Source: a virus | IMG/VR virus record: IMGVR_UViG_3300042869_000676 | Location: 1 to 64,000 of that record | Reading direction: 5' to 3' (one strand) | Length of the DNA: 64,000 nt | Shown: positions 4,097 to 22,646 of the stretch, one piece after another | Layout: the number at the start of each line of letters is the position of its first letter | How positions within the stretch are numbered: the first letter of the stretch is position 1 | Made by a program: the position numbers and the translations under genes | Notes under the pieces: model-generated | Databases searched by the model: none | The model's input: only the letters and a program-made list of their open reading frames with translations | Told to the model about the DNA's origin: nothing

Positions 4097-4519
4097 TTAA
4101 TTCTTTTTCCTCCATCCATCAGTAATGGAGTGACAATTTGGGCAAAGCAATTTTAAATTTAAAGGATCATTATTTGTTCTATTTTTATCAACATGATGAA
4201 TTTCAAGTTTTATTAGTTGCCCTAACCATTCAGTATTTTCGCAAGATTCACAAGCATGACCTCTTTCTTTTATTAAATGCGGTTTTACATAAGACGCTCT
4301 AGAATAATTAGACCAACCTTTTAATCTCTTACCTTTATTCCATTTAGAACCAGTCCAATGAGAAGTATCTATTTCCAATTTCTCTATTAAAGAATGAATT
4401 GTGTAGTAATTTCCCCCGACGCATTTTAAATTTAAATTTCTAAGAAGTTCAGCAATACTCTTGACTTTCTTCGCCAAATCAATAACTTGCTCATCAGTGT
4501 AGTTTCTGTATTTTCTCAT
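4097..4519 (-). CDS. HNH homing endonuclease
   Basis: CESC...LEIHHVDKNRTNNDPLNLKLLCPNCHS; free-standing beside tRNA-Leu. Confidence 0.9.
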   Translation of the reverse strand: MRKYRNYTDEQVIDLAKKVKSIAELLRNLNLKCVGGNYYTIHSLIEKLEIDTSHWTGSKWNKGKRLKGWSNYSRASYVKPHLIKERGHACESCENTEWLGQLIKLEIHHVDKNRTNNDPLNLKLLCPNCHSITDGWRKKN

Positions 4520-4582: not shown

Positions 4583-4670
4583 GGCCGAGTGATGGAACTG
4601 GCTATACATAAGCGACTTAAAATCGCTTGCCCTTTAGGGATTATGGGTTCGACTCCCATCTCGGCTACCA
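4583..4670 (+). tRNA. tRNA-Leu(UAA)
   Basis: GGCCGAG/CTCGGCT acceptor, anticodon loop CTTAAAA, long variable arm, GGTTCGACTCC, encoded CCA. Confidence 0.93.
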
Positions 4671-12196: not shown

Positions 12197-12424
12197 ATGA
12201 ATGAAACACCAATTAAAAAAGGCAGAGGTCGCCCCGCTGGTGGCACCTCTTTTGTAAACGTGTCTATCGCTGACTTGAAACGGTTCGGAGAAATTCCTGT
12301 TCCTGTTTCTCGCGTGTGGCTTGAAAAAATGGGCTTGACGGTCGCAACAATCTCACCCATTGTTAGCGAAGTTAAACAAGAAATTGCTCCCGCTATTGAA
12401 TTCAAATTGACCCAACTAAACTAA
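12197..12424 (+). CDS. small AT-hook DNA-binding protein
   Basis: KKGRGRPAG motif. Confidence 0.6.
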   Translation: MNETPIKKGRGRPAGGTSFVNVSIADLKRFGEIPVPVSRVWLEKMGLTVATISPIVSEVKQEIAPAIEFKLTQLN

Positions 12425-13362
12425 TGAAAGCTCGTTTCTCCAACCTAATCGGCCAAACTGATGTCAAGAAGAAGTTCGATTTCTATCTCGACTCTCAGAA
12501 TCAATCACAACGTTTTCCTTTTGTTTTGCTCACGGGCGCAAAGGGAATGGGCAAGACCGAGTTCGCCAAAGAAGCGGCTCGATCTATCGTTGGGAAAAGT
12601 GGCGAAGCTCGCCCATTTCTTGAGATCAACTGCGGCACAATCAAAAACGCGCAAATGTTCTTTGAGCAAGTGTTCGCACCTGTGATTCAAAACAATGAAG
12701 TTACTGTTCTGCTGGATGAGTGTCATGCTCTGCCCAAAGACTTAATGACTGTGCTTCTCTCTGCTTTTAACACTGAGAAAACTGAGCGCAAACAAATCTC
12801 TTGGAAGGACGGACTCTACGAGTTCAATTTCAAGATGCAGAGTTTCATGTTGGCAACGACTGAACAAGATCGTTTGTTTGGCCCATTGAAAGATCGTTTG
12901 CTGTCGATTGATTTTCAAGCCTACTCTGTGGCGGAAACTGCTGAGATTATCAAACGCGCATTCCCTGACATTAGTTTTGAAGGTGATGTGCTTAGTCTCG
13001 TTGCCAAAACTGTTCGTGGAAATGCTCGCTCTGCTATCCAACGCGCAAAACAGATTGAGATGTATTGCCAGACGAAACACAAGAAAACGTTTGACGTTGC
13101 TGACTGGACTTCACTCTGCGACAAGATCGGCATCAACTCATCTGGTCTTTCTAATTCTGAGATTCAAGTGTTGACAACTCTTAAACAGCGCGGCGACTGC
13201 TCGCTTTCAATGTTGAGCGCAGTCACAGGTATGTCTCGCTCTGCGCTTCAACGCGACGTGGAAATCTTCCTCTTGCAGCGCGGTTACATGAAGATCGAAG
13301 GTTCCAGAAAGATTACCGCAGAAGGTGTCAAGGCTTTGTCTGCTATCGAGGAGAAAAAATAA
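12424..13362 (+). CDS. ruvB: RuvB-like Holliday junction branch-migration ATPase
   Basis: FSNLIGQ, Walker A GAKGMGKT, Walker B LLDECH, PLKDRL, RGNAR, C-terminal VEIFLLQRGY...SRKITAEG winged helix. Confidence 0.8.
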   Translation: MKARFSNLIGQTDVKKKFDFYLDSQNQSQRFPFVLLTGAKGMGKTEFAKEAARSIVGKSGEARPFLEINCGTIKNAQMFFEQVFAPVIQNNEVTVLLDECHALPKDLMTVLLSAFNTEKTERKQISWKDGLYEFNFKMQSFMLATTEQDRLFGPLKDRLLSIDFQAYSVAETAEIIKRAFPDISFEGDVLSLVAKTVRGNARSAIQRAKQIEMYCQTKHKKTFDVADWTSLCDKIGINSSGLSNSEIQVLTTLKQRGDCSLSMLSAVTGMSRSALQRDVEIFLLQRGYMKIEGSRKITAEGVKALSAIEEKK

Positions 13363-13386
13363 AAAGAAAAAAGATAGGAAAAGGTA

Positions 13387-13416
13387 TTGACGAGTGCAGA
13401 AAAATCCTCACACTCA
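13387..13416 (+). promoter_or_regulatory. putative sigma70-type promoter for ncRNA cluster
   Basis: A-rich UP element, TTGACG, CACACT at 16-nt spacing. Confidence 0.5.
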
Positions 13417-13430
13417 TTTTCGTTGAGGTC

Positions 13431-13823
13431 ATCTGACTCCCGCCCCCCACGCCTGACAATACTAGGTGGGGCGGGAAATCAGGTTGTTCTTTCTAATTTT
13501 GGTTGAGAAAAAGAGTATCGAGCGCGGCGAAGAGCCAAGCGACGCCTAATCGACCAAAATTTTGTAACGCTAAAAATCCCAAGCAAGAGTGCTTCTATGT
13601 GAAAACGGTAAAAGTCCGTCACGGGAGGTAAAGCCACGAATAGAGGCTTACTCGTTACAATCTAATTTTTGTGGTGAAGCAAAGTATGGAGCAGCCCTTC
13701 CTAGTGCTGGGTATTAGCGGTTGAAAACTACCGCCGCCACATTAAAACTTTCCTCAATCCGCCGATCCACATTGGCTGGTGAGGAACCCTGGAAGTGGGT
13801 CGCGCATACTTTAATCACGCGAA
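13431..13823 (+). ncRNA. cluster of at least five structured non-coding RNA elements
   Basis: ORF-free 500 bp with successive elements each closed by a terminal stem and separated by AATTTT linkers. Confidence 0.65.
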
Positions 13824-13875
13824 TAATTTTGCTAGCTAAACTAAACAATAACTGATTGCTTAACTAAATACTAAA

Positions 13876-14331
13876 ATGCCTAACTGGTGCCAAAACAACA
13901 TCGCCATCTCTGGTGATTTAAATAAATTTAAAACGTGGCTTAACGGTGAACCGTTCAGCCTGAATAAGATTGTGCCAATGGATCAAATCTTATTGGAAGA
14001 TGAAGGCTGGCATAATTGGCGCATCGAGAATTGGGGAACTAAATGGGACGTGGACGTAGAGGCTGAAATCACTTTCAGCGGAGACAGTGCGATACTTATC
14101 CACTTCAACAGTGCGTGGGGACCGCCTAACTTAGCTATCGCTAAGCTCTCAGAATCTTTTCCAGAGATTACAATTGAACACTCTTATCTTGAAGAAGGTA
14201 TGTGCTTTGTTGGCAAAGATGTCTATTCTAATGGCGCTCTTCGTAACGCAGTATGCTACGAAGACCCTAGCAAAGAAGAGTGGAAAGAACTTGCCACTGC
14301 TGAATTTAACTGGGAACCTTACGAGGAATAA
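13876..14331 (+). CDS. YubB/DUF1281 ferredoxin-like domain protein
   Basis: MPNWCQN, WRIENWGTKWD, FNSAWGPP, YLEEGMCFVG. Confidence 0.8.
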   Translation: MPNWCQNNIAISGDLNKFKTWLNGEPFSLNKIVPMDQILLEDEGWHNWRIENWGTKWDVDVEAEITFSGDSAILIHFNSAWGPPNLAIAKLSESFPEITIEHSYLEEGMCFVGKDVYSNGALRNAVCYEDPSKEEWKELATAEFNWEPYEE

Positions 14332-14701: not shown

Positions 14702-14776
14702 GTCCTTATCGTATAACGGATAATACAAGGCTCTTCTAAAGCCTCAATGAAAGTTCGATTCTTTCTGGGGACACCA
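14702..14776 (+). tRNA. tRNA-Arg(UCU)
   Basis: GTCCTTA/TGGGGAC acceptor, anticodon loop CTTCTAA, GTTCGATT, encoded CCA. Confidence 0.9.
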
Positions 14777-14778
14777 TC

Positions 14779-14851
14779 GGGCAGATAGCTTAGTGGTTAA
14801 AGCAAAGAACTCATAATTCTGTGATCGGGGGTTCAAGTCCCTCTCTGCCCA
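14779..14851 (+). tRNA. tRNA with CAU anticodon (Ile2 or elongator Met)
   Basis: GGGCAGA/TCTGCCC acceptor, loop CTCATAA, GGTTCAAGTCC; CCA not encoded. Confidence 0.9.
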
Positions 14852-14865
14852 TTTCTTTAGAGACA

Positions 14866-14985
14866 AAAGGTGAACCACTTATCTCTTAATACTAAAAGAC
14901 GAAAGCTGAACTAGATAATACTTAATAACGAAAGGTGAACTACTTAATACGTAATAACGAAAGGTGAATGCGTTAATAAGTAATA
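14866..14985 (+). repeat. 29-bp tandem repeat ACGAAAGSTGAA-N5-TAATAMNTAATA (3 copies plus one degenerate)
   Basis: Units at 14899, 14928, 14957; AAAGGTGAA also at 14866. Confidence 0.85.
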
Positions 14986-14994
14986 ATAAAAACA

Positions 14995-15093
14995 GGGGTA
15001 GGTAGGGGTAGGTAGGGGTAGGTAGGGGTAGGTAGGGGTAGGTAGGGGTAGGTAGGGGTAGGTAGGGGTAGGTAGGGGTAGGTAGGGGTAGGT
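14995..15093 (+). repeat. (GGGGTAGGTA) x ~10 tandem array
   Basis: Direct reading. Confidence 0.95.
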
Positions 15094-15129
15094 GAATTGA
15101 GATTGGTTCTCAGTCTCAACGGTGGAGCA

Positions 15130-20241: not shown

Positions 20242-20838
20242 TTACCTAGCCTTTGGCTTAATTCCTTCTTCTTCTAGCTGTTTATCATAGGCTAAAGAAA
20301 CGAGCATAGCTTCTTCATGTGTTTCAAAATAACCTAAATGTTTGCCGCATCTTTTAACACGGTATTTTTTAGATCCATCTTTAAACGTTAATATGAATAT
20401 TCCGTACTTATAATTTTTTAGTTTTTTATTGTTATTATTTTGCTTCATAGTAACTTCATATAAATTAGATATAGAGTTATTTAAGGGATTTTTATCTCTA
20501 TGATCTACAAGCATATTTATTTCAGGCCAACGCTTGTGATACATAGTATATAGCAAAGTATGAACATGGTGATTTTTTCTTTTAAACGAGGTCCTTTTGT
20601 ATCCGTTCCATATACTAGTAATCTCTTTGCCTGAATTTCTGTTAGTTAATGTGCCTTTTTCAAAATCAGCGATAAATGACTCCGACAAATCTTCTGGAGT
20701 TGGTCTATTTTTGTATTCAAAATAAAGCTTTACAAACTCGTCTATATCCATATGCTGGCTTCTTTTATAACGAAAAATCGCATCTTTTTCTTGAAAAGAC
20801 ATAGATAGCTCTTCTGGCTGTTGATTTTCTTGATTCAT
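20242..20838 (-). CDS. HNH homing endonuclease
   Basis: VDHRDKNPLNNSISNL and C-terminal HLGYFETHEEA (AP2-like). Confidence 0.85.
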   Translation of the reverse strand: MNQENQQPEELSMSFQEKDAIFRYKRSQHMDIDEFVKLYFEYKNRPTPEDLSESFIADFEKGTLTNRNSGKEITSIWNGYKRTSFKRKNHHVHTLLYTMYHKRWPEINMLVDHRDKNPLNNSISNLYEVTMKQNNNNKKLKNYKYGIFILTFKDGSKKYRVKRCGKHLGYFETHEEAMLVSLAYDKQLEEEGIKPKAR

Positions 20839-20841
20839 AAA

Positions 20842-21546
20842 TTAACCTTCGTTGAAAAATTCTCCGTGTAATTTTCGACCTATTTCATCTCGCCAAGCTT
20901 TAAGTATTTGAATTGTAGCTTCAACAAATTCTTTTTTAACAGTCATCGACTTGAAATATTTCTTCCCATTACAAGAAACACAAGCATCAACACGCACGCG
21001 ATCATCAGAAATAGAACGCACAAAAACACCTTTTACCCCTGATTTGTTACTTTCGTACAATGATTTGTTACTGGCGTTTTGAGAATTAGTACTTTCTCTT
21101 AGATTGCAAGGTCTATTATCTGTTTTATCTTCATTTATATGATCTACCTTATAGCCTTTTTTGGCCCAACGACCATTATGTAAACAAAAAATAATTTTAT
21201 TAAGAAAAACCGTAAAATAATAACCCTCAAATTTTATACTGGCTACTATATATCCCTGACGTTTTAAAAAGCCAACTTTATCACCAGCCTTTTTATTACC
21301 ACTGTTGTTTTTTAAAAACAAATTTCCATCTTCGTCATGATAATACATCTTAGCTAATTGTTCTGGAGAAATAACATCTTCAATCCTTTTTTTTGGCCCC
21401 TTATACTCCCAAACATCCATTGCATAGTTGAAGTTTTCTATTCCGCCGATTCTTTTTACTAAGAGTCTAATTTCAGCAAGCATTTCTGCCGTCACAATTA
21501 ACTCTTTTTTTTGATTTGTTTGTTTTGCTTTTTTAGTTAGCGCCAT
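20842..21546 (-). CDS. HNH homing endonuclease
   Basis: VDHINEDKTDNRPCNLRE...NKSGVKGV. Confidence 0.88.
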   Translation of the reverse strand: MALTKKAKQTNQKKELIVTAEMLAEIRLLVKRIGGIENFNYAMDVWEYKGPKKRIEDVISPEQLAKMYYHDEDGNLFLKNNSGNKKAGDKVGFLKRQGYIVASIKFEGYYFTVFLNKIIFCLHNGRWAKKGYKVDHINEDKTDNRPCNLRESTNSQNASNKSLYESNKSGVKGVFVRSISDDRVRVDACVSCNGKKYFKSMTVKKEFVEATIQILKAWRDEIGRKLHGEFFNEG

Positions 21547-22109: not shown

Positions 22110-22646
22110 TCAATCAAAGTTGCTAATTTGAATCCCAAGTACAAGGTCATCCCCAGTACTATCCTGTTTTTCAGTGTTTTCATTAAATTTTGGTATTTTG
22201 TGTAGGTATGGTTCTAAATCAAATCTTCCAGCGTGAAATTCGGCGTGGCAGTTCTTGCATAATGGGGCGCATTTCTGTAGTTCTTTTATAAGTTCTTCAT
22301 CATCTAATTTTCTTCTACACTCTCCTATCTCAAACTTTTTCTCTGACGGGACAATGTGATGAAAGTCTATTGCTTCCGGAACAGAATGTCCGCATCTGAT
22401 ACATGCGCCGCCTAAATGGTTAATATAACTAATTTTTAAACATCTTGCTACATCTCTCCTCGTTTTTAAATTTCTATGTGGAGTTTTATCATGGCATTCT
22501 TTACAACTTCCCCTAAGACCAAATCGACCTGCCTTATTCACATAGAAATCAGAGAAAAGCTTAAGCAATTTACAAGCACGACAAGTTTTATGTGTTACAG
22601 TTTGATGCGTCACTAAAGTATCAACTATTGTATCAGTTTGCGTCAT
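22110..22646 (-). CDS. HNH endonuclease with Zn fingers
   Basis: CRAC...CKEC, GGACIRCG...IDFHH...LCKNCHAEFH. Confidence 0.85.
   Translation of the reverse strand: MTQTDTIVDTLVTHQTVTHKTCRACKLLKLFSDFYVNKAGRFGLRGSCKECHDKTPHRNLKTRRDVARCLKISYINHLGGACIRCGHSVPEAIDFHHIVPSEKKFEIGECRRKLDDEELIKELQKCAPLCKNCHAEFHAGRFDLEPYLHKIPKFNENTEKQDSTGDDLVLGIQISNFD

Follow-up and report, generated by a model that had tools for sequence, protein, structure and literature searches.

A probable boxA-led array of small structured RNAs in the tRNA region of lake phages

Phage tRNA clusters are increasingly viewed as counter-defence loci, and some of the RNAs that they encode are not tRNAs. In phage T4, rnaC (species 1, 139 nt) and rnaD (species 2, 119 nt) adjoin tRNA-Arg (AF158101, 70908-71171). 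The fold of rnaC has a terminal helix stacked on a canonical T arm, neither RNA matches an Rfam model, and since these two RNAs were described, decades ago, no function has been assigned to the non-tRNA RNAs of such clusters. GOLLD and ROOL, enigmatic structured phage RNAs that tend to adjoin tRNA genes, each form one RNA of some 600-800 nt and are covered by Rfam models. A further point of comparison is provided by the leaders of rrn operons, in which a hairpin is followed by boxA. The boxA consensus for NusB/NusE sites is GYTCTTTAANA (PMC5725501). Thousands of unnamed candidate structured RNAs, some of them tRNA-like, have been reported in a survey of IMG/VR (PMC10690425).

We analysed a window of 64 kb, the first part of a 75.6-kb record, estimated to be about half complete, of an uncultured virus; the public runs containing this record are lake-water metagenomes. 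Between a RuvB-like gene and a small DUF1281_C gene lies a gene-free stretch of 513 nt (13363-13875), with six structured elements, E1 to E6 (Table 1). The stretch is likely to encode small stable RNAs in an untranslated, boxA-led operon, the RNAs being cut apart in A/U-rich linkers. The locus adds three covariation-supported, uncatalogued RNA families, including a cloverleaf tRNA look-alike that is unlikely to decode. Unrelated lake phages exchange these RNAs as cassettes, and the RNAs are accompanied by a candidate rRNA-style antitermination signal. The E2, E3 and E4 families are uncatalogued in the sense of having no Rfam match.

Table 1. Features of the array and of its surroundings in the 64-kb window, with the segment and z-score of each element folded singly.
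Feature	Position	Strand	Basis or remark	Segment folded singly	z
RuvB-like AAA ATPase gene	12424-13362	+	5' neighbour of array
Promoter-like element	13387-13415	+	TTGACG, 17-nt spacer, ACACTC; read from sequence
E1, long GC-rich hairpin, putative boxB-like first leader element	13431-13484	+	Fold and conservation	13431-13484	-4.68 (-29.4 kcal/mol)
boxA-like motif GTTCTTTCTAA, candidate NusB/NusE site	13486-13496	+	Conservation, consensus fit
E2, 57-nt rod-like RNA, 7-bp closing stem	13500-13556	+	Five distinct homologues	13495-13561	-3.54
E3, 99-nt multi-branched RNA	13562-13660	+	13 distinct homologues, covariation	13562-13660	-2.96
E4, 70-nt cloverleaf and discriminator-like A	13671-13741	+	Conserved unit with flanks 13666-13750	13670-13741	-1.29
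E5, conserved hairpin	13750-13786	+	Fold and conservation	13750-13786	-3.71
E6, AGUGGGU motif and 5-bp hairpin with conserved loop	13794-13824	+	Nine variants	13800-13822	-0.27 (weak alone)
DUF1281_C gene, small	13876-14331	+	3' neighbour of array
tRNA-Arg(UCU) and tRNA-Met(CAU)	14702-14851	+	ARAGORN and Rfam; 0.9 kb downstream of array

Setting and leader of the array

The earlier note on this DNA had described an ORF-free stretch, and indeed 13363-13875 holds only short overlapping frames of 27-52 aa, on both strands, none of which is credible. The rest of the window has the usual genes of a large tailed phage (PhoH, a sigma-like protein, terminase, HNH endonucleases, collagen-like fibres), and Pfam scans, which covered 47 window ORFs, revealed among these no RNA-handling enzyme that would suggest a partner. 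Four tRNAs were found in the window by ARAGORN, and relatives carry tRNA-Asp/Arg/Met at the equivalent relative place. An HNH endonuclease gene (4097-4519, minus strand) directly adjoins a solitary tRNA-Leu(UAA) (4583-4670), and further HNH endonuclease genes are located at 20242-21546 and 22110-22646 (minus strand); such nucleases could aid in moving cassettes of the tRNA region. Directly after tRNA-Met, at 14866-15095, AAAGGTGAA is repeated, and a 10-nt unit, GGGGTAGGTA, forms a perfect array.

Folded as a whole, the plus strand of the stretch reaches -152.1 kcal/mol (z = -3.65, none of 100 shuffles being as good), and the minus strand has a z of -2.42. All six self-closing elements that had been proposed do close when folded singly over the segments given in Table 1; E1, E2, E3 and E5 are each well below their own shuffles, E4 and E6 being unremarkable by energy alone. 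The two TCTAATTTT linkers that had been pointed out are present, at 13492 and 13661, the former overlapping the boxA-like motif. More generally, the idea that AATTTT-type linkers serve as spacers was upheld: indels between relatives map precisely to the A/T-rich linkers, which are therefore where one module ends and the next begins.

Hairpins of this kind might act at the level of DNA, as a replication origin, a packaging site or protein-binding palindromes. This is the least probable of the alternatives that we considered: the plus strand folds better than the minus strand, the modules are co-oriented and interleaved with tRNA genes in many phages, and the conserved G-U pairs of E2, E3 and E4, which exist on the plus strand only, would be A-C mismatches on the other strand. 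The strand-specific G-U pairs therefore favour a plus strand RNA.

A promoter had been placed ahead of the stretch. What stood of this claim is the promoter-like TTGACG-N17-ACACTC, nearly invariant in five to six relatives, but a sigma-70 consensus scan called no promoter at 13387-13415, where the -10 region is poor. A TTGAC-N17-(A/T)ACTC-type layout also occurs ahead of tRNAs and modules in related arrays, and we infer promoter activity for the site in the window. A small CCUCA/UGAGG hairpin (13406-13428) overlaps the -10-like region; it is not conserved in relatives and is therefore probably fortuitous.

Downstream of this site, E1 is nearly invariant among six relatives, variation being confined to its loop, and after a variable spacer of 3-4 nt all six keep the sequence G(C/U)UCUUUC(U/A)A. 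Its 7-nt boxA core is exact in the window and conserved in the six relatives. Positions 8-9 of the motif differ from the consensus in the window, and the relatives match it at 10 of 11 positions, the consensus being gamma-proteobacterial. A looser 11-nt boxA pattern is not enriched over the whole window (4 found, 2.0 expected). In the related arrays, GTTCTTT is found on the array strand rather than on the other one in ratios of 11:0 (L093), 13:1 (L125), 6:0 (L118), 5:0 (L107) and 3:0 (L128), its usual place being 35-45 nt past a promoter-like TTGAC and immediately ahead of a tRNA or a module. Both in the window and in its relatives, the boxA-like motif stands behind the promoter-like site and a hairpin, and ahead of untranslated RNA elements.

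The conserved order of hairpin and boxA-like motif, the fit of its core to the consensus and the strand bias led us to read E1 and the GYTCTTTC motif as a putative antitermination leader of the boxB/boxA type known from rrn operons, and not as a product RNA. E1 had been counted among the stable RNAs of the cluster; its hairpin is real, as its z-score attests, but together with the GYTCTTTC that follows it would belong to the leader.

RNA families and conserved hairpins

Conservation in E2 is limited to the 7-bp closing stem, in which 13500-13506 pair with 13550-13556; the outer AATTTT/AAAATT part that had been included in this element is not conserved in the homologues and was abandoned. Across the five sequences, 97.5% of the cells are paired and two closing-stem pairs are changed on both sides, the stem existing in three versions (GGUUGA/UCGACC, GGCCGA/UCGGCC and GACCGA/UCGGUC). 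Some relatives are devoid of E2, as a clean 60-70-nt indel. A 20-nt pattern of E2 had no match in IMG/VR, and the covariance model of the element (R3) detected no additional relatives.

The structure of E3 consists of an 8-bp terminal helix, a 4-bp junction helix, three inner hairpins and an 8-bp 3' hairpin that abuts, and so would be stacked on, the 3' strand of the terminal helix. In the alignment of 13 sequences, 96.4% of the cells are paired, as compared with 33-46% when the partners are slid, and five pairs are changed on both sides. The covariation score, 0.134 versus 0.060 in shuffles, was reached by none of 500 shuffles. The 3' hairpin stays at 8 bp while a bulged A shifts its position, and in one copy the terminal helix is longer by a compensated pair. 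Seventeen contigs were retrieved by a metagenome scan for E3; a 17-mer scan of IMG/VR gave, besides L093, only chance matches inside genes. The element is located five nt past the CCA of tRNA-Glu in five contigs (L093, L113, L114, L125 and L127). At L107:1493-1530 (plus strand), equivalent to L096:2546-2583, only the first ~32 nt of E3 are found (88% identical), followed by divergence; this truncated E3, in a complete 297-kb phage, looks like a recombination scar inside the module.

Exact-pattern scans identified E4 in four other viral contigs, 95-98% identical and in two unrelated flanking contexts; in IMG/VR, 6 of the 10 matches to its 17-mer are chance ones. The contigs L093 and L096, the latter from a complete 297-kb phage, are ~95% identical around the site, where their sole difference is an 84-nt indel corresponding to E4 and one linker. 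As these copies are almost invariant, a covariance model (R1) was built from them, and it brought in four divergent relatives (E from 1e-5 to 3e-3). A divergent E4 relative occupies the slot between tRNA-Lys and tRNA-Thr in L132. In the resulting family of nine sequences, pairing in the acceptor-like and T-like helices amounts to 98.8%, and 6 of their 12 pairs have changes on both sides. This alignment is fitted to the model, and its covariation rests on the four divergent sequences, which were found and aligned with the help of this structure-aware model.

When parsed by hand, all nine sequences fit one cloverleaf of 69-71 nt. In it, a 6-bp acceptor is followed by AA, a D-like stem of 2-3 bp (loop AAAG..GGA), a third stem of 4-5 bp, the spacer AWUA and a T stem of 5 bp (loop UGAAARCU); an A comes after the acceptor. 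Between three subtypes there are compensatory differences in each of the four stems, and the sequences of the D-like and T-like loops are conserved between them. The five polymorphisms of E4 are all compatible with the cloverleaf, two of them converting a G-U into a Watson-Crick pair. The minimum free energy structure of E4, one long central hairpin, was discarded, as it is contradicted by one polymorphism while the cloverleaf fits all five. A micro-ORF was also considered, a 16-codon frame that ends in the T loop and in which synonymous changes account for three of four substitutions (~0.11 by chance); since the divergent homologues preserve the helices but not the peptide, coding was judged unlikely.

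The third-arm loop of this family has 11, 5 or 7 nt, the one 7-nt loop having a U at position 37, and decoding is therefore improbable. The acceptor has 6 bp and an unconserved outer pair, and the T loop 8 nt. One relative encodes ACCA and then U's, like the true tRNAs of these phages. Even with E raised to 10, the tRNA model (RF00005, gathering score 29 bits) matches nothing in 13200-14000, and ARAGORN does not call E4. One might accordingly see in E4, and perhaps in E2 and E3, decaying tRNA pseudogenes or functionless processing spacers, given that E4 has the length and the cloverleaf of a tRNA, lacks a usable anticodon loop and is rejected by the tRNA finders. Such decay is quite improbable, as E4 is near-invariant across unrelated phages and undergoes compensatory changes in all four arms across subtypes, which argues for purifying selection on the fold; the two loop sequences are conserved between subtypes as well.

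E5 and E6 are conserved hairpins of uncertain status. They had been listed as structured RNAs like the others; covariation, which would have backed this, is absent from E5 and amounts to one compensatory pair in E6. E5 is conserved in four relatives, with an outermost A-U pair that is broken in four of five sequences. Among the nine variants of E6, the compensatory change is from C-G to G-C, and the AGUGGGU motif and the loop are invariant. E6 ends a few nt before tRNA-Leu(UAA) in L127 and 35 nt before it in L116, and in one RNA-library contig it is followed by seven U's and an apparent tRNA start. Related arrays also contain larger tRNA-like RNAs (L128:563-668 and L107:1672-1813, both on the plus strand), with a 7-bp terminal helix (GCAGAAU/AUUCUGC, GCAGUGU/ACACUGC) followed by U-CCA and a run of U's. 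In these, a 6-8-bp hairpin with an AAGUGGG motif, common to E6, abuts the 3' strand, and E6 may be a remnant or a relative of their 3' domain. In a variant from an RNA run (contig X17, record 9; compare 13832-13850 of the window), 166 other nt separate E6 from the downstream gene and may represent a further cassette.

Covariation in E2 (two pairs), in E3 (five pairs) and in the E4 family (all four arms) thus bears out the earlier note where it had seen in the stretch a cluster, hitherto unannotated, of RNAs that are each structured and separate, like those of tRNA operons. Its expectation that the elements have no counterpart among described families also held: at gathering scores, Rfam recognises only tRNAs in the window and 11 related loci, and no ribozyme, riboswitch, GOLLD or ROOL, and at E up to 10 the array region gives three chance-level matches (E 2-7), all outside the elements. 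Group I intron, hammerhead and twister were discarded for want of a model match. A BLAST search of the whole stretch against 50,697 cultured-phage records gave no match, and no description of these RNAs was found by literature searches. Exact-pattern scans for E4 and E3 in one genome per prokaryote species were negative as well, so there is no sign of a copied host RNA or of prophage copies.

Exchangeable cassettes in tRNA arrays

The elements are discrete, selected RNA folds that belong to tRNA arrays, and they are independent exchangeable cassettes common to unrelated phages. Two close relatives in IMG/VR (L002 and L003), whose RuvB-like gene is 90% identical, keep 13363-13496 and 13749-13834 but are without the ~250 nt in between (13497-13748, that is E2, E3 and E4), leaving E1-E5-E6, and have a different gene after E6. 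Lake metatranscriptome contigs from four studies have the orders E1-E3-E4-E5-E6, E1-E3-E5 and E3-E5-E6. Metagenome contigs show E2-E3, E1-E3-E5-E6, E1-E3-E4 and, once, the full order of the window, as well as other arrangements (E3, 0.7 kb further on E2, then E6; E4, 0.8 kb further on E3, then E6). One large RNA is thereby ruled out, since relatives carry every subset of modules. All junctions fall in A/T-rich linkers that are similar to each other (AAUUUU, AAACUUU), and each cassette appears to come with its own U-rich trailer. RNA-library contigs cover the neighbouring coding genes too, at similar depth and with DNA carry-over possible, and so give no evidence of specific expression.

Homologues of E2, E3, E4 and E6 are found among same-strand tRNAs in more than 10 contigs, and every copy of a module is on the strand of the neighbouring tRNAs. 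The arrays of L093, L107 and L128 contain many more stem-closed elements that are not tRNAs, Rfam recognising only the tRNAs in them. Examples are found between TTGAC sites, GTTCTTT motifs and tRNAs at 9600-9280 and 6650-6540 of L093 (minus strand) and at 390-760 of L128 (plus strand); some of them have 10-bp closing stems, and they have no Rfam match. At L115:1430-1505 (plus strand), ~0.5 kb downstream of E2-E3, the tRNA reported by ARAGORN has four bases in its anticodon (gcca) and no assigned identity; it could be of the frameshift-suppressor type or aberrant.

A distribution of this sort raises the possibility that the cassettes are selfish, MITE-like DNA elements that insert in the A/T-rich linkers of tRNA clusters and whose hairpins serve transposition. 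Their presence/absence polymorphisms are clean (60-84 nt), E4 is 95-98% identical across phages with unrelated flanks, and the 0-3 nt of ambiguous sequence at the junctions could be a tiny duplication. However, no transposase was found, there are no terminal inverted repeats beyond the covarying closing stems of the RNAs, and all copies are co-oriented with the tRNAs. Moreover, compensatory changes keep the inner helices, loops are invariant, G-U pairs are strand-specific, and the boxA leader fits an RNA product. We thus regard mobile DNA as an unlikely explanation.

Likewise, the stretch lies between two co-oriented genes, E1 is GC-rich with a U-rich tract after it, and the end of E6 is 50 nt before the next start codon, as if it were a cis-acting 5' leader of the 13876-14331 gene, or a set of terminators or attenuators for the RuvB-like gene. 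This reading is very improbable: E6 is followed by a different gene in L002 and L003 and by tRNA-Leu in other phages, E2, E3 and E4 are found far from any such gene, inside tRNA arrays, and a terminator scan was negative on the plus strand of the stretch.

Proposed mode of action and comparison with known systems

The boxA-led untranslated operon that we favour could work as follows. Transcription would start from the conserved promoter-like site, and E1 with the boxA-like leader might load the host NusB/NusE antitermination complex, which would enable RNA polymerase to read through a long, structured and ribosome-free transcript. The modules behind the leader would then be separated by endonuclease cuts in the A/U-rich linkers, at sites of the RNase E type, the enzymes being assumed to be those of the host. 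RNase E has a loose preference for A/U-rich single strands. The acceptor/T-arm stack of the tRNA-like modules would make their 5' edge an expected site of cleavage by RNase P, also assumed to come from the host. Gain, loss and reordering of cassettes would probably occur by recombination in the similar linkers.

As to function, our leading guess, a tentative one, is that the tRNA-shaped and tRNA-stacked modules mimic tRNA and occupy tRNA-directed enzymes or defence nucleases of the host. The grounds for it are the cloverleaf of E4, which would not decode, and the stacked, tRNA-like end of E3. The suggestion of the earlier note that the RNAs are processed and may be decoys for host nucleases or defence sensors is likewise a guess as to the decoy role, to which the tRNA shape of E4 lends some plausibility in the form of mimicry. 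One might speculate further, and with greater doubt, that lake phages possess exchangeable 'RNA accessory islands', boxA-driven cassettes of non-decoding E4-family RNAs and tRNA-stacked E3 and E2 mimics, by which defence nucleases that target tRNA, or other enzymes that handle it, are sequestered or led astray. If so, an arms race would have left its footprint in the rapid acquisition, loss and reshuffling of cassettes, and the islands would be the RNA counterpart of protein anti-defence gene islands. The 57-, 70- and 99-nt RNAs provide concrete molecules for studies of partners, RNase P, CCA addition and tRNA-directed defence, and the layout of the locus (promoter, boxA, stem-closed modules, U-rich linkers) is a genomic signature by which more such arrays could be sought.

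The putative leader resembles the rrn boxB/boxA leader in its hairpin, followed within a few nt by GYTCTTT, behind a promoter-like site and ahead of untranslated structured RNA, and its motif recurs before tRNAs in related phage arrays. It departs from rrn boxA in the 3' half of the motif, CTAA or CAAA versus AANA, and no boxC was identified.

Like tRNAs (RF00005), the RNAs of the E4 family have ~70 nt, a four-arm cloverleaf with covariation, a GG-containing D-like loop and a UGAAA motif of the T-loop type, and they occupy tRNA slots in arrays. They differ by the 6-bp acceptor, the 2-3-bp D stem, the 8-nt T loop, third-arm loops of 5, 7 or 11 nt and, in most copies, the absence of an encoded CCA, whereas a tRNA has a 7-nt anticodon loop with U33 and a purine at 37, a 7-nt T loop and a 7-bp acceptor.

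Unlike GOLLD and ROOL, the locus is a chain of small independent units, with no match to either model. The closest resemblance is to the stable RNAs of T4, an analogy already drawn in the earlier note. It holds insofar as rnaC and rnaD are also small non-coding RNAs inside a phage tRNA cluster and on the strand of the tRNAs, and in rnaC, too, the terminal helix stacks on a hairpin resembling a T arm; the analogy does not extend to homology. With filters off, cmsearch of the T4 tRNA region with models R1 (E4) and R2 (E3) detected nothing at rnaC or rnaD, so that the two sets of RNAs are alike in kind without belonging to one family. The T loop of rnaC is the canonical GUUCGAAUC, as opposed to UGAAARCU in E4, and, in contrast to the two T4 RNAs, the modules of the lake phages are smaller, more numerous, apparently boxA-led and visibly exchanged as cassettes.
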